Positions 16,974-28,342 of a stretch of DNA of 32,000 bases are shown one piece after another (within the stretch, counting starts at the first letter, position 1; each line of letters starts with the position of its first letter). The stretch is from Gemmata obscuriglobus (GTDB lineage Bacteria > Planctomycetota > Planctomycetia > Gemmatales > Gemmataceae). The notes under the pieces were generated by a model. The model ran no database searches. It was given only the letters and a program-made list of their open reading frames with translations, and had not been told where the DNA came from. Location: NCBI RefSeq assembly GCF_008065095.1, contig NZ_CP042911.1:6990001-7022000 (forward strand), read 5' to 3'. The position numbers and the translations under genes were made by a program.

Positions 16974-17267
16974 ATGGGCCTGCAACCGATCGGCGACCGC
17001 ATCGTCGTTCGCCGCGAAGCCGCCGAAGAGAAGACGGCCGGCGGCATCCTCCTGCCCGACAGCGCCAAGAACAAGCCCCAGCGCGGTGCGGTTGTCGCGG
17101 TCGGCCCGGGCAAGCTCAAGCCGGACGGCACCCGCGTCCCGATGCAGCTCAAGGTCGGCGACAAGGTGCTGTTCACCTCGTGGGCCGGGGACGAGTTCAA
17201 AGGCCCCAAGAACGACGGCGAAATCCTGCTCATGCACGAAGGCGACGTGATGTGCGTGATCGCGTGA
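16974..17267 (+). CDS. groES: Co-chaperonin GroES
   Basis: MGLQPIGDRIVVRREAAEEKTAGGILLPDSAK...GDKVLF. Length is 97 aa. A GAGGA ribosome-binding site is present. Confidence 0.95.
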   Translation: MGLQPIGDRIVVRREAAEEKTAGGILLPDSAKNKPQRGAVVAVGPGKLKPDGTRVPMQLKVGDKVLFTSWAGDEFKGPKNDGEILLMHEGDVMCVIA

Positions 17268-17314
17268 CCGCGGCACCGGCATAAGCACCGAACACCCAAC
17301 CGAGAGGTTTGACG

Positions 17315-18952
<1,638 letters not shown>

Positions 18953-19374: not shown

Positions 19375-19770
19375 CTACTCGACGGGCGCGGCGAGTTCGT
19401 CCACCACCTCATCGACACCGACGGTGTTCCGCGCCACCCCAACGGCCAGGCGCTTCACGTTGGCGTTCGGCACCACGCCGCGGAGCGTCACCACGTTGCC
19501 CTCGGCGGTGACCGTGAACTCGACGCCCACGAACCGCTTGTCGGCCGCTAGCCGGGCGCGAACGGCCTCGTCGGCGCGAGTGGGTAGCTCTTTACGCAGT
19601 GCGTCCACCGGCGCGGACACGTTCACCCCATGCGGCAGTGCATTACGGAGTTTCGCCACCGTCAGCCGCGACACCGCCGCGAGCTTGTCACCGTCGGACG
19701 CCTTGAACTTGCTGCCGACCAGCAACAGGAACAGGGCCACCAGAATCATCACGGAGGCGAACTGGCGCAT
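19375..19770 (-). CDS. BON domain protein with an N-terminal membrane anchor/signal (131 aa)
   Basis: The N-terminus MRQFASVMILVALFLLLVG is hydrophobic. The C-terminal segment VTLRGVVPNANVKRLAVGVARNTVGVDEVVDEL is BON-like. Confidence 0.72.
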   Translation of the reverse strand: MRQFASVMILVALFLLLVGSKFKASDGDKLAAVSRLTVAKLRNALPHGVNVSAPVDALRKELPTRADEAVRARLAADKRFVGVEFTVTAEGNVVTLRGVVPNANVKRLAVGVARNTVGVDEVVDELAAPVE

Positions 19771-19860
19771 GACGACACCGGGCGGAACGCGAGGGGCGAG
19801 TTCCGTTCAGTATGTCCGTCCCGCGGCTCGGGCGCAAGAGCTTCGAGGAGAAGGGAAACG

Positions 19861-20205
19861 TCAGGCGGCGTCCGCCGGGGACGGTTGCAGCGGCCACAGC
19901 ACCCGGCGCAGGGTGTCGTCCGGGTCGTCTTCATCCGGCGATTCGAGTACGATCGTGACTCGGGGCAAGAGCCCGTGCCGCGCGAGAACGTCTTTCACGA
20001 CGATCAGTGCCGCGTCGGGGGCGGTGATGGATTCCAACGGAATGTTGATGAACCCCGCGTCGGTCGCCCCGCGTCCGCATTCTCCCGCGGCGCGCGCGAG
20101 AAGGGCCGCGTCGAGGTCGTGTTCGAGCCGAGTCCGCAGGTCGAAATCCTCGTCCGTTCCAAACGCCCCGTTCACCGGCAGCCGAACTACCATCCCGAAC
20201 GTCAT
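19861..20205 (-). CDS. Hypothetical acidic protein (114 aa)
   Basis: ATG at 20205 with GGAG 7 nt upstream. Composition is protein-like and I recognise no family. Confidence 0.5.
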   Translation of the reverse strand: MTFGMVVRLPVNGAFGTDEDFDLRTRLEHDLDAALLARAAGECGRGATDAGFINIPLESITAPDAALIVVKDVLARHGLLPRVTIVLESPDEDDPDDTLRRVLWPLQPSPADAA

Positions 20206-20291: not shown

Positions 20292-22023
20292 GAGGTCACG
20301 CCACGGTTTGCAGTAGGCCTTGCGGTCCTCGGGGCACGGGATAGGAAAAGCGCGGGGCGATTTCGCCGCAACTCTCGTGCGGGGCGAGTCATGAGCACAC
20401 CGCGTTTCACGGCCGAGGAACTCGACCGCCTTCGAGCACTGGCGGCGGAGTGGGGCAAAATCGTTTCCAAGCGGGCGTTCGGGGACGACGGGCCGGGATT
20501 GGACGTGGACTTCCGGACGATGGAGCAGATCGCCACCGCGGCGGCACAAGGGCTCACCGAAGGTGCCCTCCAGCAGATGCTCCACCAGCAGGCCCGGAAG
20601 GTGCCCGAACAGGTTCCGTGTCCGGTGTGTGGCGAGCCGTGCCCGACCCGACCACACACCCGCACCCTGGCGGCCCAAGGGGCCACGGTTCAACAGGCCG
20701 AACGGATCGCCCATTGTCCCGCCTGCCGGCGGGACTTTTTCCCCCCTGCGGCTGGCCCTCGGGCTGGATGAGCACGGGTACAGTTCCTCGGTCGTTCAAC
20801 GCATCGTCACGGCCGCCGCCCGGTTCTCCTCGTTCCGGGATGCCGCCGAGGCGGTGCGGATGACCGGGGTCACGATCAGCGACAACCAGGTGCGCCGACT
20901 GGCTCACGAGGTCGGGCACGAGTTGATCGCGCGGCGCGATCGGAAGGCGGTCGAGCACCGGCGCCGCCAGTTAGAGCCGCGGACCGTGGTGGTGCCCGTG
21001 GCCGTGGTGGTCGAGGTCGATGGGGGGCGCATCCGCACCCGCGCCGCGGGCGCCGGCCCGGGTGTTCACGAGGCCCAGAACAAGGAGGACAAGGTGGCGT
21101 GCCTGGCCACCCTGAGTGGCCCCACGTTCGCCACGGACCCGTGCCCCGAGCCGCCCGAGTCGTTCCGCTGCCCGCGCCGGGTGCGGCGCCTGGTGCAGCA
21201 GATGAAGGGCCCGGCGGGCGAGGTCGCGCCCCCGGAAACCGTGGACGAATCGACGCCCCCGGTGCCGGCCGGGGAACCCGAAGGGGCCGAGCGGTGGTCC
21301 CCGACACGGTTGGTGCGGACGTGCGTGGCGAGCCTGGAGGGGAGTACCGCGTTCGGCCCGATGATGGCCGCCGAGGCCCAGGAGCGGCGCTTCTATGAGG
21401 CCCCGCGTCGGGCGTTCGTAGCCGACGGTCAGGCGTACAACTGGACCATCTGGCGCGGGTACTTTGGTGCGTTCGAGCCGATCGTGGATTTCCTGCACGC
21501 GGTGTGTTACGTGTTCTCGTCGGCCGCGGCCGTGAGCCCCGATGAGGCGTCGGGTTGGTCCCAATACGTGGCCTGGATGCGCGCGTGCTGGCAGGGTCGC
21601 GTTGGAGAAGTGCTCACCGAACTGGATCAGTGGCAGGCGCGGCTGGGTGAGCCCCCACCGGGTGAGGCGGCGACGGCCGAGGAGCGCCGGGACCCGCGCC
21701 GGGTGGTGGCGCACGCGCGGACCTACTTGGGGAACAATCGGGATCGCATGGCGTACCCGCGATACCGGCGCAACGGGCTACCGACGACGAGTAGCTGGTC
21801 GAGTCACTGGTGGGCGAGATCAACGCCCGGGTGAAGAGCACACAGAAGCATTGGACCCGGCCCGACGGTGCCGAATCGATCCTGCAACTGCGGGCCGCCG
21901 TGCTGAGCCAAGACGACCGGCTCCCACGGTTCTTCGCCGAACGGCCGGGCTCCTCGTTCCGCAAACGAGATACACTCTGCCACAAATCAGAGGGTGCCAC
22001 AGCACAAACCGTGGCGTGACCTC
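20292..22023 (+). mobile_element. 1732-bp insertion sequence, ISKra4-like
   Basis: The 19-bp terminal inverted repeats are perfect: GAGGTCACGCCACGGTTTG at 20292-20310, and its reverse complement at 22005-22023. The element is flanked by the 9-bp direct repeat CTCGATTTC. It encodes a single transposase whose stop lies inside the right repeat. Confidence 0.82.
20391..22019 (+). pseudogene. ISKra4-family-like transposase interrupted by two frameshifts
   Basis: Three consecutive frames read through a single protein.
- MSTPRFTAEEL...CPVCG...HCPACRRDFFP changes frame at the T5C6 run (20736-20746).
- It continues as LRLALGLDEHGYSS...YPRYRRNGLPTTSS, then changes frame near 21795.
- It ends as LVESLVGEINARVKSTQKHW...
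The zinc-ribbon plus FFP-L motif and the C-terminal motif match my recollection of ISKra4 transposases. Confidence 0.75.
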
Positions 22024-22082: not shown

Positions 22083-23225
22083 TCATACGCTCGTGATCTG
22101 CTTCAGCGCGTCGGCCAGCACGTCGATATCGGCGGCGGTGCTGAACGGCCCCGGGCTGACCCGCACCAAGCCGTCAGGAGCGGTGCCAAGCGCCTTATGG
22201 ACGTACGGCGAACAGTGCAAGCCGGGGCGCACCGCGATGTTAAACGACTGGTCGAGCACACCCGCGAATTCCGGCGCCGGGAGGAGTTCACACCGAAAGC
22301 TCAGCGCACCGACGCGCTGTGCCTCGTTCGCGTGGCCGAACACCTCGAACCCGGGCAGTTCCGCAAGGGCGCCCCGCAGGCGCTCGCACAGCTCCGTTTC
22401 GTGCCGGCGGATGCTCTCGACGCCGCGCGCTTCGACGAAGTCCAGCCCGGCGACCAGCCCCACGACGCCGAGCACGTTGGGCGTACCACCTTCAAGGTAG
22501 TGCGGGAAGTCGGTTGGTTGCGTGGGGGTGAGCGAGTCGCCCCCGGTGCCGCCCTCGCGCCACGGCCGGAGCGTCACGCGCGGCCCGACGTACAGTGCGC
22601 CGGTCCCCGTGGGGCCGAGCAGCGACTTGTGCCCCGGGAACGCGAGCAGATCGATGTGCGCGGCCTGGACATCGACCGCGATCGCCCCCGCGGTCTGTGC
22701 GGCGTCGACCAGAAACAGCACGTCGCGCTCGCGGCAGATGCGCCCCACGTCGGTGATCGGCTGCACGGTGCCGAGCACGTTGCTGGCGTGGGTCATCGCG
22801 ACGAGCCGGGTCTTCGGCCCGATCGCGGCGCGCACCGCTTCGGGGTCGATCGTGCCGCCGCTGTCGGCCGGAACGCGTGTCAGGGTGATGCGCCCGGCTT
22901 CCGCGAGCGCCACCAGCGGGCGCGACACGCTGTTGTGTTCGAGGTCCGTGGTGATGACGTGGTCGCCGTCGTTCAGTACGCCCTTGAACGCCATGTTGAG
23001 GGCGTCGGTGCAGTTGAGCGTGAACGCCCAGCGTTCCGGGTTGCGGCCGTTGAAGAAGCGGTTGAGCCGGTGCCGCGCGTCGGAGAGGGCGTGCTCGGAC
23101 TCCAGCGCCATCCGGTGCCCCGAGCGCCCCGGGTTGGCGAGCGAGTGCCGCGCGAAGCGGTCCATCGCGACGTACACGCTCTCGGGCTTCGGGAAGCTGG
23201 TCGCGGCGTTATCGAGGTAGATCAT
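22083..23225 (-). CDS. Class V aminotransferase, cysteine desulfurase family (380 aa)
   Basis: MIYLDNAATSFPKP; the PLP-lysine motif FPGHKSLLGPTGTGALYV; and RPGLHCSPYVHK near the C-terminus. This resembles the stand-alone cysteine desulfurase / selenocysteine lyase-like subfamily. Confidence 0.85.
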   Translation of the reverse strand: MIYLDNAATSFPKPESVYVAMDRFARHSLANPGRSGHRMALESEHALSDARHRLNRFFNGRNPERWAFTLNCTDALNMAFKGVLNDGDHVITTDLEHNSVSRPLVALAEAGRITLTRVPADSGGTIDPEAVRAAIGPKTRLVAMTHASNVLGTVQPITDVGRICRERDVLFLVDAAQTAGAIAVDVQAAHIDLLAFPGHKSLLGPTGTGALYVGPRVTLRPWREGGTGGDSLTPTQPTDFPHYLEGGTPNVLGVVGLVAGLDFVEARGVESIRRHETELCERLRGALAELPGFEVFGHANEAQRVGALSFRCELLPAPEFAGVLDQSFNIAVRPGLHCSPYVHKALGTAPDGLVRVSPGPFSTAADIDVLADALKQITSV

Positions 23226-23539
23226 GATGAACCGTCGGCCGGCCCGAACCGGCTATGGAGGATCGCCCAGAGCGCAAAGCCGTGCCGCTCTTCTGGCAAC
23301 ACGCGGTCGAGAAACAGGTACAGCAGGTGTTGCTGTTCGCCCGACAAGTCCGCCAGGCGGAACCGCACGTCGCAAGCGTTGGAAACAGGCGGGTGGTAAC
23401 CGTGATCGACGAACCGCCACCATGTCAGCCGGTCCGCCCAGACCTCACGCGGGACGCCGACGGCGATGAGATCGGCCTCGTTAGCCGCCACCCACAGGCG
23501 CCACTCGCGTTCGCCCTGCTTGTCGCGGCGGAAGCTCAA
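23222..23539 (-). CDS. Hypothetical protein (105 aa), start uncertain
   Basis: The only start in the ORF is the TTG at 23539, which overlaps the Uma2 stop (TTGA). Its own stop overlaps the desulfurase ATG (ATGA). The sequence is Trp-rich and protein-like. I recognise no family. Confidence 0.45.
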   Translation of the reverse strand: MSFRRDKQGEREWRLWVAANEADLIAVGVPREVWADRLTWWRFVDHGYHPPVSNACDVRFRLADLSGEQQHLLYLFLDRVLPEERHGFALWAILHSRFGPADGSS

Positions 23540-24141
23540 GGCAGCAAATCGGTTACTGAGATTGTACCGACCTGCTCGCCGTCAACTACTACGGGCACCA
23601 CGTCGCCCGGGCCGTAGTCGGCGCGTGTCTTGTACGTCGGGTTCTTGCCGCCCTTCGGTTGCGTGTACACTTCCACGCACCGATCCACGAGATTTACGAT
23701 CCAGTACACGGGCAACTTGGCCTTCGCGTACTGCGGGATTTTCAACCGCCGGTCCTCGTCGAGCGAAGTGTCAGACACCTCAATGACGATCGTCACGTCC
23801 TTTTCCGTCGGGTGCCGCTTCGTGTACTGCTGTTTCGGCGCCTGGACGACGGCGACGTCCGGCTCAGGTGCGTTGTCGCCGGGGAGCCGCACCGGCAGTT
23901 GCGTGCGCGTCGTCCACTCGGCCGGGAGCAAATCGGCGATGGCGCTGTTGGTCACATCGACCGTACCGGCGTGCTGAGGGTTGTGGGCCATCTTGTCCAC
24001 CAGCCAGCCGTCGATCAGCTCGGAGCGGTCGCCGGGGGTGAAGAACCCGATCGCCGTCAGCCGCTCGTACTCCTCGATCGTGAACCGGTGAACGGAGCGC
24101 GGGGGGGCGTCGGCAGGCAGCGGCGCGACCTTCGTTCCCAT
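23536..24141 (-). CDS. Uma2-family (DUF820) putative endonuclease (201 aa)
   Basis: The start is the ATG at 24141 (MGTKVAPL...) with AGGAGG upstream. The sequence FTIEEYERL...ELIDG...PDVAVV...IVIEVSDTS...K...YA...YWIV shows the PD-(D/E)xK layout of Uma2 proteins. Confidence 0.8.
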   Translation of the reverse strand: MGTKVAPLPADAPPRSVHRFTIEEYERLTAIGFFTPGDRSELIDGWLVDKMAHNPQHAGTVDVTNSAIADLLPAEWTTRTQLPVRLPGDNAPEPDVAVVQAPKQQYTKRHPTEKDVTIVIEVSDTSLDEDRRLKIPQYAKAKLPVYWIVNLVDRCVEVYTQPKGGKNPTYKTRADYGPGDVVPVVVDGEQVGTISVTDLLP

Positions 24142-24322
24142 GCGGATACCTCCTACCGCAAGAATCTTACGCCCCACCCGGACGGCCGCGCACACCAGCG
24201 AGCCTCTGCCCCGCTGGTATGCGCCGGGCGTGCGTCCGGGGTTCACGCGGAACCGGCTCGCGTCGGTCATGCGTGCCAGAGACCCGCGCTCCGGCGCCGG
24301 CACCTTTCAACCGGATTCGGCA

Positions 24323-25378
24323 TCAGTGCCCGACGTACTTGGCGTACAGCGTGCGGGCCTTGTCCGGCTCGTCGGTGCCCTTGATGATCGCCCGGCCGTC
24401 CTCGAACACCGTGAACTCGTACGGGTCGCCGTTCTCGACCAGTTGGAACTTCAGCAGGAACTTGTTGTAGCTCACCTCGCCCGACTGCTTCAGCACGCCC
24501 GCGAGGTACGCGAAGTCGAGCTTGCCCTTCGTCCGGTGGCTCACTTGCACCGCGTTGCGGCCGCACAGCGACGTGGTCTGGGTGCCGTGCGCGCCGTCGA
24601 GCCACTCGAAGTTACGCTTCGCGCAGCACGGGCACTGCCCCTTGCGCCCCGCGAGCGGCGCCACCTTCACGCGCTTGTTGGTGTTCTCCCACACGTCGAG
24701 GATCAGCAGCTCGCGATTCACCGCGGCCTTGTTGCCGGACAGCAGCTTGATCGCCTCGGTGGCCTGGTAGCTTGCGACGATGGCGACCGCCGGCCCGAGC
24801 ACGCCGGCCGTCTCACACGTCCCGGTCTCGCCCGGGGCCGGTGCGGCCTCAAACACGCACCGCAGGCACGGCGTCTCGCCCGGGATGATGGTCATGCTCA
24901 TCCCCTGGCTGCCCACCGCCCCGCCGTAGACCCACGGCTTCCCGTGCTTGAACGCCACGTCGTTGATGAGGTAGCGGATCTCGAAGTTGTCGCTGCCGTC
25001 GAGGATCAGGTCGGCGCCGTCGCAGAAGTCCTCAATGTTGGTGCGGTTGATGTCCGCGACGATCGGCTCCACCGTGACCGACGAGTTGATCGCGCGCAGT
25101 TTGGTGGCGGCGGCCTCGGCCTTCGGCAGGTTGCTGGTCACGTCGGACTCGTCGAACAGCACCTGCCGCTGCAAGTTCGACGGCTCGACGAAGTCGCGGT
25201 CGATGACCCGCACGAACCCCACACCGGCGCGCACGAGGGTGTTGGCGAGCACGGTGCCGAGCGCGCCGCACCCGCAGAGCGTGACGCGGCTGGCGAGCAG
25301 TTTCTCCTGCCCACCTTTGCCCAGACCCGGGAACCGCATCTGGCGGGAGTAACGTTCGAGAGGGTTCGCGTCGTTCAT
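24323..25378 (-). CDS. ThiF/MoeB-family adenylyltransferase (E1-like), Bacillus MoeB/ThiF architecture, no rhodanese domain
   Basis: YSRQMRFPGLG, the nucleotide loop CGCGALGT, DRDFVEPSNLQRQ, the zinc motifs CLRC and CPCC, and a C-terminal LCGRNAVQV...FEDGRAIIKGT domain, as in B. subtilis MoeB. Confidence 0.9.
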   Translation of the reverse strand: MNDANPLERYSRQMRFPGLGKGGQEKLLASRVTLCGCGALGTVLANTLVRAGVGFVRVIDRDFVEPSNLQRQVLFDESDVTSNLPKAEAAATKLRAINSSVTVEPIVADINRTNIEDFCDGADLILDGSDNFEIRYLINDVAFKHGKPWVYGGAVGSQGMSMTIIPGETPCLRCVFEAAPAPGETGTCETAGVLGPAVAIVASYQATEAIKLLSGNKAAVNRELLILDVWENTNKRVKVAPLAGRKGQCPCCAKRNFEWLDGAHGTQTTSLCGRNAVQVSHRTKGKLDFAYLAGVLKQSGEVSYNKFLLKFQLVENGDPYEFTVFEDGRAIIKGTDEPDKARTLYAKYVGH

Positions 25379-25443: not shown

Positions 25444-25797
25444 CTACAGGCCTATTTCATTCTCTTTGAGGAACTCTTGCAGGAATCGCACGTGCTGTTT
25501 GGGCCACTTCTCTTCCCGCGCGAACCCGACCAGCGCGGCCATGTCCTCACGTACCCGCCGCAGGTCCGGCCCGTCGAGCCGCTGCATGTACGAGACGAGG
25601 TAGTGCATCGCCTCCTCGGCCACCGCCGGGTTCAGCACCCCCGGCTCGGACCCTTCGAGGAAGACGTAGCTGTGGATCGCGGCGAGCAAGAGCGGGTGGA
25701 CGCCCAGCTCGGCCGGGATCAGCGGGAACACCGCGGCCCCGTCGGGCGCCTCTTCGGGCTTCTTCTCTTCGGCGGACATCCGGAGCCTCACGGTCAA
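25444..25797 (-). CDS. Hypothetical Cys-free helical protein (111-117 aa)
   Basis: The track start is a TTG at 25797, overlapping the upstream stop. A more likely start is the ATG at 25779 (MSAEEKKPEE...). GC3 bias is good and I recognise no family. Confidence 0.55.
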   Translation of the reverse strand: MTVRLRMSAEEKKPEEAPDGAAVFPLIPAELGVHPLLLAAIHSYVFLEGSEPGVLNPAVAEEAMHYLVSYMQRLDGPDLRRVREDMAALVGFAREEKWPKQHVRFLQEFLKENEIGL

Positions 25798-26072
25798 TCG
25801 CCGACGGCGTAAATCAGTACCAGCAGTTCGTCGTCGCCGTGAACCGCGTCAGGATCGTATCGCAACGACTCGCCGTCAGAATCGCGATACAGTTCGAACC
25901 ACCCGTGCGGGTTACCGTCCGCGTCGATCAGCCGCTCGCTCAGCGACGGGAACCGCGCCGCGAGTTCGTGGTAGATAGCGGCCCACGTCTTGGCCGCAAC
26001 TCGTACTTCAGCCGCCTTATGACCTTGCTGCTCGGGAGAAAAGTAGACGTTCGGCAGCAAAACGGTCGGCAT
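25794..26072 (-). CDS. Second beta-grasp (MoaD/ThiS-like) protein without a C-terminal Gly-Gly (92 aa)
   Basis: ATG 3 nt after the MoaD-like stop. Length and pattern follow MoaD: ...FPSLSERLIDADG...YDPDAVHGDDELLVLIYAVGD can be set against ...YPGVEPKLFADGK...MDTAVTDGVIVALIPAVAGG in the neighbour. It ends in GD rather than GG. Confidence 0.5.
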   Translation of the reverse strand: MPTVLLPNVYFSPEQQGHKAAEVRVAAKTWAAIYHELAARFPSLSERLIDADGNPHGWFELYRDSDGESLRYDPDAVHGDDELLVLIYAVGD

Positions 26073-26075
26073 ACG

Positions 26076-26348
26076 TCACCCGCCCGCGACGGCGGGAATG
26101 AGCGCCACGATCACGCCGTCGGTCACCGCGGTGTCCATCTCGTCGAGGTAGCGGATGTCCTCGTCGTTCAGGAACACGTTGATGTACGGGCGGAGCTTGC
26201 CGTCCGCGAACAGCTTGGGCTCGACCCCGGGGTACTGGCGCACGAGGTCCGCGAGCGCGGCCTTCACGGTCGCGCCGGTCACGTCCACTTCCGCCTTCCC
26301 GCCGGTCTGCTCGCGCATCGGGGTCGGGATCTGAACCTTGATCGCCAT
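26076..26348 (-). CDS. MoaD/ThiS-family sulfur-carrier protein ending in Gly-Gly (90 aa)
   Basis: MAIKVQIPTPMREQTGGKAEVDV...DGVIVALIPAVAGG-stop. Size, pattern and the terminal GG are typical of CysO/MoaD/ThiS-type carriers. Confidence 0.8.
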   Translation of the reverse strand: MAIKVQIPTPMREQTGGKAEVDVTGATVKAALADLVRQYPGVEPKLFADGKLRPYINVFLNDEDIRYLDEMDTAVTDGVIVALIPAVAGG

Positions 26349-26369: not shown

Positions 26370-26738
26370 TCATCGTGGGATAATCAGCATTATCCACATT
26401 CCGATAGTTAACAGCACCGCTACGCCCAGCCACACACGCCACAGCAGCGGGAGTTGGCGGAACGCGATCAGAGCATTGTTCTCGGCGCTGGCGCGGGCCA
26501 CCATGCGGTTCGTCCACGGGAACAACAGCAAGCCGATGCCGGTCCAGGTTCCGCCGCCCGCGAACAGGCCTTGGAAAGCGATGACCGCACGAATCCGGAC
26601 CCGGCCGGCGCCCTCGACGAACACCATGACGGCCATGATCGCGCCGAGGAGCAGAAGTGCCGCGCCCAGCGGGCGCGACTTTTTGTGCGGTCGATCGGGG
26701 TCCGGGCCGGCGTCCGGCCGTTCGCCGGGCGGGCTCAC
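26370..26738 (-). CDS. Small predicted 3-TM membrane protein (~122 aa)
   Basis: The GTG at 26736-26738 overlaps the TGA of the ThrC-like gene (GTGA). Hydrophobic segments are LGAALLLLGAIMAVMVFV, VIAFQGLFAGGGTWTGIGLLLFPW and LLWRVWLGVAVLLTIGMWIMLII. This is the only sensible part of the 447-aa track ORF. The start could instead be an internal ATG. Confidence 0.5.
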   Translation of the reverse strand: MSPPGERPDAGPDPDRPHKKSRPLGAALLLLGAIMAVMVFVEGAGRVRIRAVIAFQGLFAGGGTWTGIGLLLFPWTNRMVARASAENNALIAFRQLPLLWRVWLGVAVLLTIGMWIMLIIPR

Positions 26739-28006
26739 ACCAGCACCGGTTCCGCAGCCCGCTCGCCCAGCCCGACCAGTTCCTTGAAGTCGGCCAGGGC
26801 CGGCTTGATGACCGCCGGCTCGTCGAGGGCGTCGAACACCGCGTCCTGGGTCTTGAGCCCGTTGCCGGTGATGCAGATCACGATCTCCTCGTGCCGCGGG
26901 ATGCGGCCCGACTCGATCAGCTTCTTGGCGACCGCCAGCGTCGTCCCGCCGGCCGTCTCCGCGAACACGCCCTCGGTCTTCGCGAGGAGCTGCATCCCCT
27001 CCACGATCTCCGCGTCGGTCACGTCCTCGGCCCAGCCGCCGGTCTCGCGGATCAGCTTCGCCGCGAAGTACCCGTCGGCCGGGTCGCCGATGGCGAGGCT
27101 CTTGCAGATCGTGTTGGGGGTCCGCACCGGCTTGTGCCGCTCGCGGTTGCTCTTCACGCAGTCCGCGATCGGGTTGCAGCCGGCGGCCTGCGCCCCGTAC
27201 ATCTTGGTCGTGACCGGTTGGTCCACGAGCCCGAGCTTGCTCAGCTCGGTGAACCCCTTGTGGATCTTGCCGATCAGCGCGCCGCCGGCCATCGGGCAGA
27301 CGACGTGCTGCGGGAACCGCCAGCCCAGGTCCTCGGCGATCTCGAACCCGACCGTCTTGGACCCTTCCGCGTAGAACGGGCGCAGGTTCACGTTCACGAA
27401 CCCCCACCCGTACTCCATCACGATCTGGGTGCAGAGCCGGTTCACCTGGTCGTAGGTGCCGGACACCTTCACGACCTTCGCGCCGTACACCGCGGTGCCC
27501 AGGATCTTGACCCGCTCGAGGTCGGCCGGGACCAGGATGGTGGCCTCGAGCCCGGCGGACGCGGACAGCGCCGCGACGCTGTTGGCGAGGTTCCCGGTGC
27601 TGGCGCACCCGACCATCCGCATCCCGAGTTCGCGGGCCTTCGAGAGCGCGACGGAGACGACGCGGTCCTTGAACGAGAGGGTCGGGAAGTTGACCGCGTC
27701 GTTCTTGATCCACAGCCGCTCGACGCCCAGCGCGTCCGCGAGCCGGTCGGCGCGGATCAGCGGGGTGCCGCCGACCTGCGGGCCGACGGTCGGTTCGCCG
27801 TCGAGCGGGAGCAGCTCACGGTACCGCCACATGTTTTTGGGGCGCGACTGGAACTTGGCCCGGCTGACGTGCGGCTTGATCTTTTCGTAATCGTAGGCGA
27901 CTTCGAGCGGCCCGGAATCGTCGGCGCAGAAGAAGTGCGCGCCCTTCGGGTACAGTTTGCCGCACACGCGACACTTCAGGCCCAGAACGAAGTCGTTACT
28001 CGCCAC
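26735..28006 (-). CDS. Threonine synthase-family PLP enzyme (ThrC homologue; MetM-like role proposed)
   Basis: The likely start is the GTG at 28006 with AGGGG 8 nt upstream; the track start is a TTG at 28036. The N-terminus is zinc-ribbon-like (CRVCG). The PLP-lysine motif is NFPTLSFKDR. GCASTGNLANS and the overall ThrC layout are present. Confidence 0.85.
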   Translation of the reverse strand: MASNDFVLGLKCRVCGKLYPKGAHFFCADDSGPLEVAYDYEKIKPHVSRAKFQSRPKNMWRYRELLPLDGEPTVGPQVGGTPLIRADRLADALGVERLWIKNDAVNFPTLSFKDRVVSVALSKARELGMRMVGCASTGNLANSVAALSASAGLEATILVPADLERVKILGTAVYGAKVVKVSGTYDQVNRLCTQIVMEYGWGFVNVNLRPFYAEGSKTVGFEIAEDLGWRFPQHVVCPMAGGALIGKIHKGFTELSKLGLVDQPVTTKMYGAQAAGCNPIADCVKSNRERHKPVRTPNTICKSLAIGDPADGYFAAKLIRETGGWAEDVTDAEIVEGMQLLAKTEGVFAETAGGTTLAVAKKLIESGRIPRHEEIVICITGNGLKTQDAVFDALDEPAVIKPALADFKELVGLGERAAEPVLV

Positions 28007-28176: not shown

Positions 28177-28342
28177 ATCTTATCTTCCCCGGCCATACCA
28201 CGTCTCAGTTCGGGAGACGATGGCGTTTGCCGGGCAGGAGTTAGCACCTGCATCCGAGACCCGAGTTGTGTGCTCGAATCGAAACGGACCGGTTGCTGTG
28301 GCGTCGTCGGGCCTGGCCCCTCAGCCACTCTGGATAAGATAC
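28177..28342 (-). promoter_or_regulatory. SAM-I (S-box) riboswitch aptamer
   Basis: The minus strand reads AUCUUAUC-CAGAG-UGGCUGAGGGGCCAGGCCCGACGACGCCAC-AGCAACC...GGUGCUAACUCCUGCC...GAAGAUAAGAU. This matches the conserved SAM-I core (UUAUCaAGAG, GAGGGA, GGCCC, GA-k-turn, GCAACC, GGUGCcAAuUCC, AGAUAAG). P1 is an 8-bp helix, AUCUUAUC with GAUAAGAU. P3 and P4 appear extended. Confidence 0.8.

Follow-up and report, generated by a model that had tools for sequence, protein, structure and literature searches.

Two described systems come closest to the operon considered here, namely the MetM/MetO thiocarboxylate route to homocysteine of Streptomyces albulus, reportedly the work of Hasebe and colleagues in 2024, and the CysM/CysO/Mec system of Mycobacterium tuberculosis, which serves cysteine synthesis. 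In S. albulus, the ThrC homologue MetM converts O-phosphohomoserine into homocysteine with the thiocarboxylated carrier MetO, the metM gene is preceded by an S-adenosylmethionine (SAM) riboswitch, and MetM is often mis-annotated as threonine synthase, according to two papers describing the route (bioRxiv 10.1101/2024.10.14.618325; PMC12172450). The GapMind text adds that Mec is required for MetO maturation (bioRxiv 10.1101/2024.10.14.618325). The route has been described only since 2024, and its components beyond Streptomyces are largely unannotated. The locus examined here belongs to a stretch of 32,000 nucleotides from Gemmata obscuriglobus (contig NZ_CP042911.1, positions 6,990,001 to 7,022,000 of the forward strand; hereafter the window), in which two open reading frames (ORFs) between a sulfur carrier gene and an E1 gene had been picked out by an earlier note. 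The first of them encodes a Cys-free helical protein of 111-117 residues and is a conserved, unnamed core gene, accompanied by the other operon genes as far as the contigs extend. The second, of 92 residues, is a true gene kept by purifying selection; it encodes a full-length paralogue of the carrier with a beta-grasp fold and constitutes a rare, optional and dispensable cassette.

The operon genes and their leader all lie on the minus strand, in the order riboswitch, ThrC-like enzyme, carrier, 92-residue protein, helical protein, E1 and desulfurase-like enzyme. The ThrC-like gene is directly preceded by a leader with a SAM-I riboswitch aptamer (28177..28340; Rfam RF00162, E = 1e-15, 73.8 bits where the gathering score is 44.4), and all 14 related Gemmataceae loci tested with Rfam have the same element ahead of this gene. 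A promoter-like site (28422-28394) precedes the aptamer, and terminator-like hairpins (28157-28143 and 28054-28037) stand between it and the ThrC-like start codon. The ThrC-like protein, a pyridoxal 5'-phosphate (PLP) enzyme of 423 residues with a GTG start as in its relatives (26735..28006; Pfam PALP, E = 1e-70), scores 287 bits with the thrC model TIGR00260, and its closest relatives in the Protein Data Bank (PDB) are threonine synthases. The 90-residue carrier of the CysO/MetO type (26076..26348; Pfam ThiS, E = 1.4e-13) has a Gly-Gly end, reading ...IPAVAGG in most related loci; it scores 62.8 bits with NCBIfam SAMP1, and among PDB sequences it is closest to 4n6e_B, the CysO that partners BexX (E = 1e-18), and to 3dwg_C, the CysO of M. 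tuberculosis (E ~1e-18). The E1 is a ThiF/MoeB-type adenylyltransferase of 351 residues without a rhodanese domain (24323..25378; Pfam ThiF, E = 4.5e-76) and is matched over its full length by NCBIfam PRK12475; its translation contains CxxC-type Cys pairs and one Cys in the segment ...GTCETAGV.... The last enzyme, of 380 residues, has a class-V aminotransferase fold and is cysteine desulfurase-like (22083..23225; Pfam Aminotran_5, E = 9e-90). Related operons were collected from one-genome-per-species data with the helical gene as query; the gene was confirmed in 132 stretches, the best 80 of which were kept as loci (numbered L), and 78 of these 80 include the carrier gene.

Since a SAM riboswitch fronts the ThrC-like gene, the operon can be assigned to methionine/homocysteine biosynthesis; the earlier note made no mention of the riboswitch that identifies it as such. 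Most likely, the operon would provide for riboswitch-controlled homocysteine synthesis by a thiocarboxylate route of the MetM/MetO type. The desulfurase would supply sulfur, the E1 would adenylate the Gly-Gly end of the 90-residue carrier, which would then become a thiocarboxylate, and the ThrC-like enzyme would apply this thiocarboxylate to O-phosphohomoserine. Considering the operon context and the MetM/MetO papers together, the ThrC-like enzyme is a candidate MetM-type homocysteine synthase. Against this it must be said that the protein scores above the NCBIfam threonine-synthase cut-off (TIGR00260) and that the MetM assignment rests on context; sequence models cannot tell MetM from threonine synthase.

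The points of agreement with these two systems, MetM/MetO and CysM/CysO/Mec, are a ThrC-homologous PLP enzyme beside a CysO-like Gly-Gly carrier, a SAM riboswitch ahead and an E1 for activation. Unlike both systems, the Gemmataceae operon carries the genes of the E1 and of a desulfurase-like enzyme in cis, has a universal four-helix gene and sometimes a second, non-Gly-Gly ubiquitin-like protein, and combines an E1 devoid of a rhodanese domain with the absence of a Mec/JAMM peptidase. Regarding the latter, the earlier note had seen no peptidase gene in the operon, and Pfam scans of the likely genes of the 32-kb window, chosen by codon composition, agree in giving no JAMM/MPN or other peptidase family; the genes called in the related loci include no peptidase family either. 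Gemmataceae would thus appear to run a self-contained, SAM-riboswitch-controlled version of the thiocarboxylate route.

The Cys-free four-helix protein

The helical gene (25444..25797) can be read from a TTG at 25797 (117 residues, overlapping the stop of the 92-residue ORF as TTGA), a GTG at 25791 (115 residues) or an ATG at 25779 (111 residues), the last giving the form on record in a public collection (P0153). The overlap, the lack of Cys and the helical character had all been pointed out in the earlier note, and each is borne out: the protein has no Cys at all, and its AlphaFold2 model, with a mean predicted local distance difference test score (pLDDT) of 89.8, shows four helices after an ordered N-terminal segment bearing the motif PDGAAVFPLIPxELG. 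That the ORF is a genuine gene is evident from 1291 homologue clusters, the best 120 of which are at least 73% identical to the window copy. It occurs in all operons examined, with a conservation above 70%. Across 63 sequences of the family, 38 columns are invariant, among them several Glu, His, Tyr, Arg and Asp residues that recur with the period of a helix, and the protein is conserved as much as the carrier or more, e.g., 77% against 63% in L028. The order carrier, helical gene, E1 is kept in the species loci wherever the contig reaches, the ThrC-like gene is likewise syntenic, and the desulfurase-like gene is found 3' of the E1 in most related loci with a sufficiently long contig. In the species genomes scanned, all plausibly labelled records of the gene belong to Gemmatales, and a few labels of metagenome-assembled genomes (MAGs) look like mis-binning.

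Sequence searches of Pfam, NCBIfam and PDB and fold searches of PDB and BFVD gave no match to the family. The best fold matches of the model (E of 1.3 in PDB and 0.8 in BFVD) are nuclear-receptor and Erv1 fragments with TM-scores below 0.35 and were rejected. The source names of its relatives clash with each other, running from DUF1844 and DUF3349 to "iron-containing alcohol dehydrogenase" and "hypothetical protein"; the two DUF names given in UniRef were discarded, no Pfam match to either being obtained in 22 members at E up to 10. When looked up, the source names of the relatives proved to be either "hypothetical protein" or contradictory machine-made ones throughout, so that annotation would gain directly.

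With regard to function, the helical protein is most likely an obligate, lineage-specific subunit or adaptor without catalytic activity in the sulfur-loading step, serving the E1 and/or the desulfurase. Because it has no Cys, it is more likely to be an adaptor than a sulfur relay. Two considerations weigh against an adaptor: the argument for it proceeds only by exclusion (no Cys, no recognisable catalytic fold), and the invariant polar residues of helices 1-4 (E, H, Y, R and D) might just as well belong to an active site. An alternative is that the protein is itself an enzyme, e.g., a hydrolase freeing homocysteine from a carrier adduct in place of a Mec/JAMM peptidase. Such a role would suit an operon without a JAMM gene, as well as the extreme conservation of the protein and its invariant His, Glu, Asp, Tyr and Arg placed at i/i+4 on the helices, but no known hydrolase fold or motif is present (the best Foldseek match has E = 1.3 and the sequence searches are empty), and bioRxiv 10.1101/2024.10.14.618325 does not establish a need for a hydrolase in product release by MetM; a hydrolase is considered very unlikely. 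Whether in the preferred role of an adaptor or not, the universal four-helix protein is a tangible candidate for a function that the pathway still lacks, be it the coupling of desulfurase and E1 or the release of the product.

The 92-residue paralogue of the carrier

The 92-residue ORF (25794..26072) opens with an ATG 3 nucleotides past the TGA of the carrier gene and encodes a protein without Cys that ends in ...IYAVGD. Its position and its Gly-Asp end are as the earlier note had read them, and the resemblance to the carrier that the note had perceived is statistically well founded: BLASTP aligns the two neighbouring proteins with E = 1e-6 (32% identity over 79 residues), hhalign aligns the two families with a probability of 96.3% (E = 1.7e-9, 85 columns), and a hidden Markov model (HMM) of the 92-residue family also matches the neighbouring carrier in most loci. 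The AlphaFold2 model, built on an 18-sequence alignment, reaches a pLDDT of 87.3 and a predicted TM-score (pTM) of 0.80 with a beta-beta-alpha-alpha-beta-beta arrangement. Its top Foldseek matches in PDB are SAMP1 (3po0), CysO (3dwg_C/3dwm) and Urm1 (4wwm), with E from 1e-4 to 6e-4, followed by the MoaD-related 1v8c (E = 2e-3); the top matches have a probability of 1.00 and TM-scores of 0.6-0.7. The suggestion of a second ubiquitin-like protein lacking Gly-Gly is thereby upheld through its beta-grasp fold.

Sequence models of known families give no clear match. Pfam PF02597 (ThiS/MoaD) gave no match among 13 members of the family at E up to 10, NCBIfam SAMP1 reached only E = 0.14, which was taken as noise, and a profile search of PDB sequences with the family found nothing meaningful. 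A PADLOC match to DpdB at E = 0.04, met in searches of both ORFs, was rejected as noise, and Pfam, NCBIfam and PADLOC returned nothing usable; the earlier statement that neither ORF matches a recognised family thus stands for Pfam and NCBIfam. Compared with the ThiS/MoaD/CysO/SAMP1 carriers (PF02597), the 92-residue protein has the same beta-grasp fold, size and type of operon (carrier, E1 and PLP enzyme), and it keeps the acidic ...(D/E)xLRY... loop as well as a last strand running into a flexible tail. The most conserved loop of the carrier, NDEDIRY, has its counterpart in D.DGE.LRY, and the conserved motifs of the family are EL..RFP, L.R, LRY.P and a terminal Gly-Cys. Unlike these carriers, the family has no C-terminal Gly-Gly and has a tail one residue shorter than that of the carrier in the hhalign alignment; it also lies under the detection threshold of Pfam and NCBIfam, is dispensable and evolves at about ten times the rate of the true carrier.

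The 3' ends of the 92-residue and carrier genes can still be aligned at the nucleotide level, and the junction past the stop of the 92-residue gene, TGACCGTG (stop, CC, GTG start of the next gene), is identical to the junction past the carrier stop in G. algarum, which together are what a tandem duplication would leave. The carrier may accordingly be pictured as duplicated in tandem long ago, with a copy that would have kept the beta-grasp fold and the acidic loop and lost the activatable end. An independent recent duplication at the origin of the window's own sub-branch was ruled out, the similarity to the carrier being comparable across sub-branches.

Across 7 pairs compared, the ratio of nonsynonymous to synonymous differences (pN/pS) of the 92-residue ORF is 0.15-0.53 (Fisher p between 1e-3 and 1e-13), with a value of 0.25 between the window and L001 (Fisher p = 2e-13), and a frame of 92-95 residues is intact in at least 12 lineages at just 33-59% identity. 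Since pN/pS is significantly below 1, the protein is maintained by selection, and this second ORF, too, is a genuine gene.

Its distribution is patchy. An intact homologue is found in 7 of the 78 species operons with a carrier gene, always in the same slot and usually 3 nucleotides past the carrier stop; in one MAG (L026), a GC-rich spacer of 182 nucleotides with palindromic runs (1126-1310) separates the two genes, the distance being 1-3 nucleotides elsewhere. When 1.84 billion cluster representatives were searched in full with HMMER, about 11 of 86-93 residues were found (long multi-stretch matches, P0133-P0141, were discounted as low-complexity), and an indexed profile search of a 5.8-billion-cluster set yielded 12 clusters. 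A metagenome scan with the window's sub-branch found no relatives, and one with the Gly-Cys sub-branch returned 4 loci, three of them already known and one a doubtful fragment. A frameshifted relic of the ORF persists in L006/L007. In G. algarum (L004, L005 and L013), which is 96-99% identical to the window at the nucleotide level over the ThrC-like, carrier, E1 and desulfurase genes, the ORF is absent. The two ORFs had been presented by the earlier note as a pair between carrier and E1, a view that holds for the helical gene as a core gene and fails for the 92-residue gene as an optional one. Absence of orthologues from related operons, which the note had named as evidence against its proposal, was accordingly found in part, for the 92-residue ORF only.

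The comparison with G. algarum also locates the edges of the cassette. The carrier genes of the window (26079-26087) and L004 (5987-5995) differ at 3 of 273 nucleotides, all within the last three sense codons, and the second edge of the indel falls in the first ~35 nucleotides of the helical gene. The differences at the carrier 3' end, lying beside the site of presence or absence of the 92-residue gene, suggest a recombination breakpoint, and the presence/absence pattern looks like cassette exchange by recombination, in which a cassette of roughly 330 nucleotides would be gained or lost at the carrier gene's 3' end. A simple crossover between the paralogous 3' ends was rejected as the sole model of the loss in G. 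algarum, as it would yield ...AVGD and the actual end is ...AVAGG. The flanking proteins of the Gemmata isolate SMAG_U3706 (L012) share about 95% identity with those of the window, its 92-residue protein only about 41%; over all pairs, the identity of the protein correlates weakly with that of the flanks (Spearman 0.29). Between the window and L001, the nonsynonymous divergence (dN) reaches 0.18 in the 92-residue gene, compared with 0.015 in the carrier gene and 0.04 in the helical one; synonymous divergence is higher in the 92-residue gene too. The G+C content at third codon positions (GC3) of the 92-residue gene is below that of its neighbours in 12 of 12 loci, with 0.71 against 0.95-0.96 in the window.

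Such features invite the view that the ORF is a functionless leftover, i.e., a decaying duplicate kept by chance and by translational coupling. The patchy presence, the frameshifted relic, the loss in a near-identical relative, the low GC3, the very high dN and the relaxed C-terminal residue within the window's sub-branch (GD, AC, AS or GC) would all fit decay. A pN/pS significantly below 1 in every pair tested, frames of 92-95 residues intact over deep divergence, conserved motifs and a confident fold prediction are hard to reconcile with it, and this explanation is held to be improbable.

The C-terminus and the possible roles of the paralogue

Among about 25 distinct members of the 92-residue family, about 19 end in Gly-Cys, 2 in Ala-Cys, 3 in Gly-Asp (the window, P0002 and P0126) and 1 in Ala-Ser, and none ends in Gly-Gly. 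Around 21 of the 25 (~85%) are thus Cys-ended, and all 7 copies from species genomes end in Gly-Cys; a 93-residue protein of G. massiliana is one of the Gly-Cys members. The Gly-Asp, Ala-Cys and Ala-Ser ends are confined to the window's sub-branch, recognised by the N-terminal motif ...EQEGHKAAEVRV..., in which Gly-Cys also occurs; since the ends other than Gly-Cys all fall there, the terminal Cys is the hallmark of the family and Gly-Asp a minority state. Conservation of Gly-Asp among orthologues, which the earlier note had proposed to examine, is therefore not observed outside the sub-branch of the window. The residues ahead of the last one are Val-Gly in the window and Val-Ala, Ile-Gly or Leu-Gly in relatives, not Gly-Gly, and the family has no conserved Cys besides the terminal one.

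Sulfur carriers can be synthesized as capped precursors, which are trimmed by JAMM peptidases, as in the pairs HcyS-Ala/HcyD and QbsE-CysPhe/QbsD. The 92-residue protein recalls them in that its encoded end is not Gly-Gly-COOH, and its terminal Cys, where present, recalls the carrier-Cys adduct that is cut by Mec. In HcyS-Ala and QbsE-CysPhe, Gly-Gly stands right before the cap and the peptidase gene is near, unlike in the 92-residue protein, which has one Gly or Ala there and no peptidase within 32 kb. The earlier note had envisaged a carrier in need of C-terminal trimming; in such a scheme, the last residue (Asp or Cys) would be a cap, cut off by a JAMM/Mec-type peptidase with its gene at another locus, and the trimmed form would be adenylated and thiocarboxylated to act as a second sulfur carrier. 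The existence of capped carriers, the kept fold with its tail-bearing last strand and, according to the GapMind text, the need of Mec for MetO maturation are in its favor. Yet with one residue taken off, the end would read ...Val-Gly (in three members ...Val-Ala) instead of Gly-Gly, on a tail that is already one residue shorter than that of the cognate carrier; the co-encoded E1 serves a carrier with a strictly conserved ...AVAGG end; no peptidase lies within the window; and evolution this fast would be unusual for a carrier having to fit both an E1 and a PLP enzyme. Little credence is hence given to a trimmed second carrier.

The terminal Cys may instead be read as a chemical group. Persulfide relay proteins such as SufE/CsdE and TusE/DsrC bear a Cys on a flexible arm. 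Most members of the 92-residue family resemble them in being small and desulfurase-linked, with a single conserved Cys at a flexible C-terminal tip, and differ in their unrelated fold and, for the window copy, in the absence of Cys. In a sulfur shuttle of this sort, the Cys on the ubiquitin-like tail would take a persulfide from the desulfurase and hand it on to the E1-bound, adenylated carrier, so that the protein would be an optional SufE/CsdE- or DsrC-like relay on a beta-grasp scaffold, and the Asp-ended window copy a derived form with its chemistry lost. Retention of a terminal Cys in ~21 of 25 members despite an overall identity of 30-45% (and in 7 of 7 species copies as Gly-Cys), the absence of any further conserved Cys, an E1 without a rhodanese domain and a desulfurase-like gene within the operon would all agree with a shuttle. 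However, about 91% of Gemmataceae operons manage without the protein, the window copy, two more Gly-Asp members and one Ala-Ser member have no terminal thiol although pN/pS is 0.25 between the window and L001, the E1 holds a Cys of its own in the ...TCETAGV... segment, and a literature search gave no biochemical precedent. Taken together, a shuttle is rather unlikely, if worth consideration.

The reading preferred here, for and against which the balance is about even, is that the window's 92-residue protein is a non-activatable carrier look-alike that docks on a partner of the carrier and modulates the pathway. Having lost the activatable end, the protein would not be adenylated by the E1 and would act as a modulator docked on one of three partners, namely the E1, the ThrC-like enzyme or the desulfurase. 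Sulfur may also be carried by the terminal thiol of members that end in Cys, and the Asp-ended copy of the window would be restricted to binding. Of the roles put forward in the earlier note, those of a decoy, regulator or adaptor may still apply. Several points tell against such a look-alike: a competitor inside a biosynthetic operon brings no obvious benefit, the strong conservation of the terminal Cys in most members suggests chemistry over mere docking, and the window copy has no Cys and is yet under purifying selection. Since the Cys is conserved in most members and the Cys-free window copy is nevertheless selected, one mechanism may not fit all members. A bolder combination, in which the Cys-ended proteins of 92-93 residues would form a new class of ubiquitin-fold persulfide relays acting at the docking sites of the true carrier on the E1 and PLP enzyme, and the four-helix protein would be an obligate adaptor or hydrolase subunit of a planctomycete thiocarboxylate methionine pathway, is regarded as distinctly unlikely. 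In any case, a carrier paralogue with Gly-Cys or Gly-Asp in place of Gly-Gly in a few genomes amounts to an experiment of nature, showing how a carrier of ubiquitin fold is used when its activation is no longer possible.

Variable slots and neighbouring genes

The operon tolerates many small insertions. Between the E1 and desulfurase-like genes, the window has a variable insert (23222..24303, minus strand) consisting of a Uma2 nuclease-like gene (23536-24303; Pfam Uma2, E = 2.6e-28) and a 105-residue ORF (23222-23539); elsewhere this slot contains Uma2 alone, Uma2 together with ORFs of 105-107 and 83-84 residues, just such small ORFs, or nothing. The 386-nucleotide gap between the ThrC-like and carrier genes harbors an 88-residue hydrophobic ORF (26370-26636, minus strand) that has about three stretches resembling membrane spans and is not matched by Pfam. 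The corresponding gap in G. algarum has 134 nucleotides only, with a long inverted repeat inside, and other Gemmataceae have PMT_2-like genes of 454-461 residues or genes of 323-330 residues in this slot; the gap of the window was considered as a remnant of the PMT_2-like genes and showed no similarity to them. Insertions between the helical and E1 genes are found in L001 (939-1436, encoding 165 residues with a weak SMI1_KNR4 match, in L001/L002) and in L009 (5339-5758, a 139-residue ORF). In some Fimbriiglobus and Gemmatales operons, the carrier itself is of an alternative form (L032 4580-4855, L037 185-460 and L057 4511-4786), 42% identical to that of the window and ending in ...LLPPTSGG, not ...IPAVAGG.

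Beyond the desulfurase-like gene, a 423-residue ORF with only a weak HTH_1 match (20563-21834, plus strand) stands before a 114-residue ORF and a BON-domain gene, and is probably an inserted element, because G. algarum has nothing there. The 114-residue ORF, of unknown function, and the BON-domain gene follow the operon in many loci. In the window they are adjoined by GroES/GroEL genes (all within 19375-20205, minus strand, and 16974-18952, plus strand), and G. algarum and one other locus have a gene of the GroEL type next.

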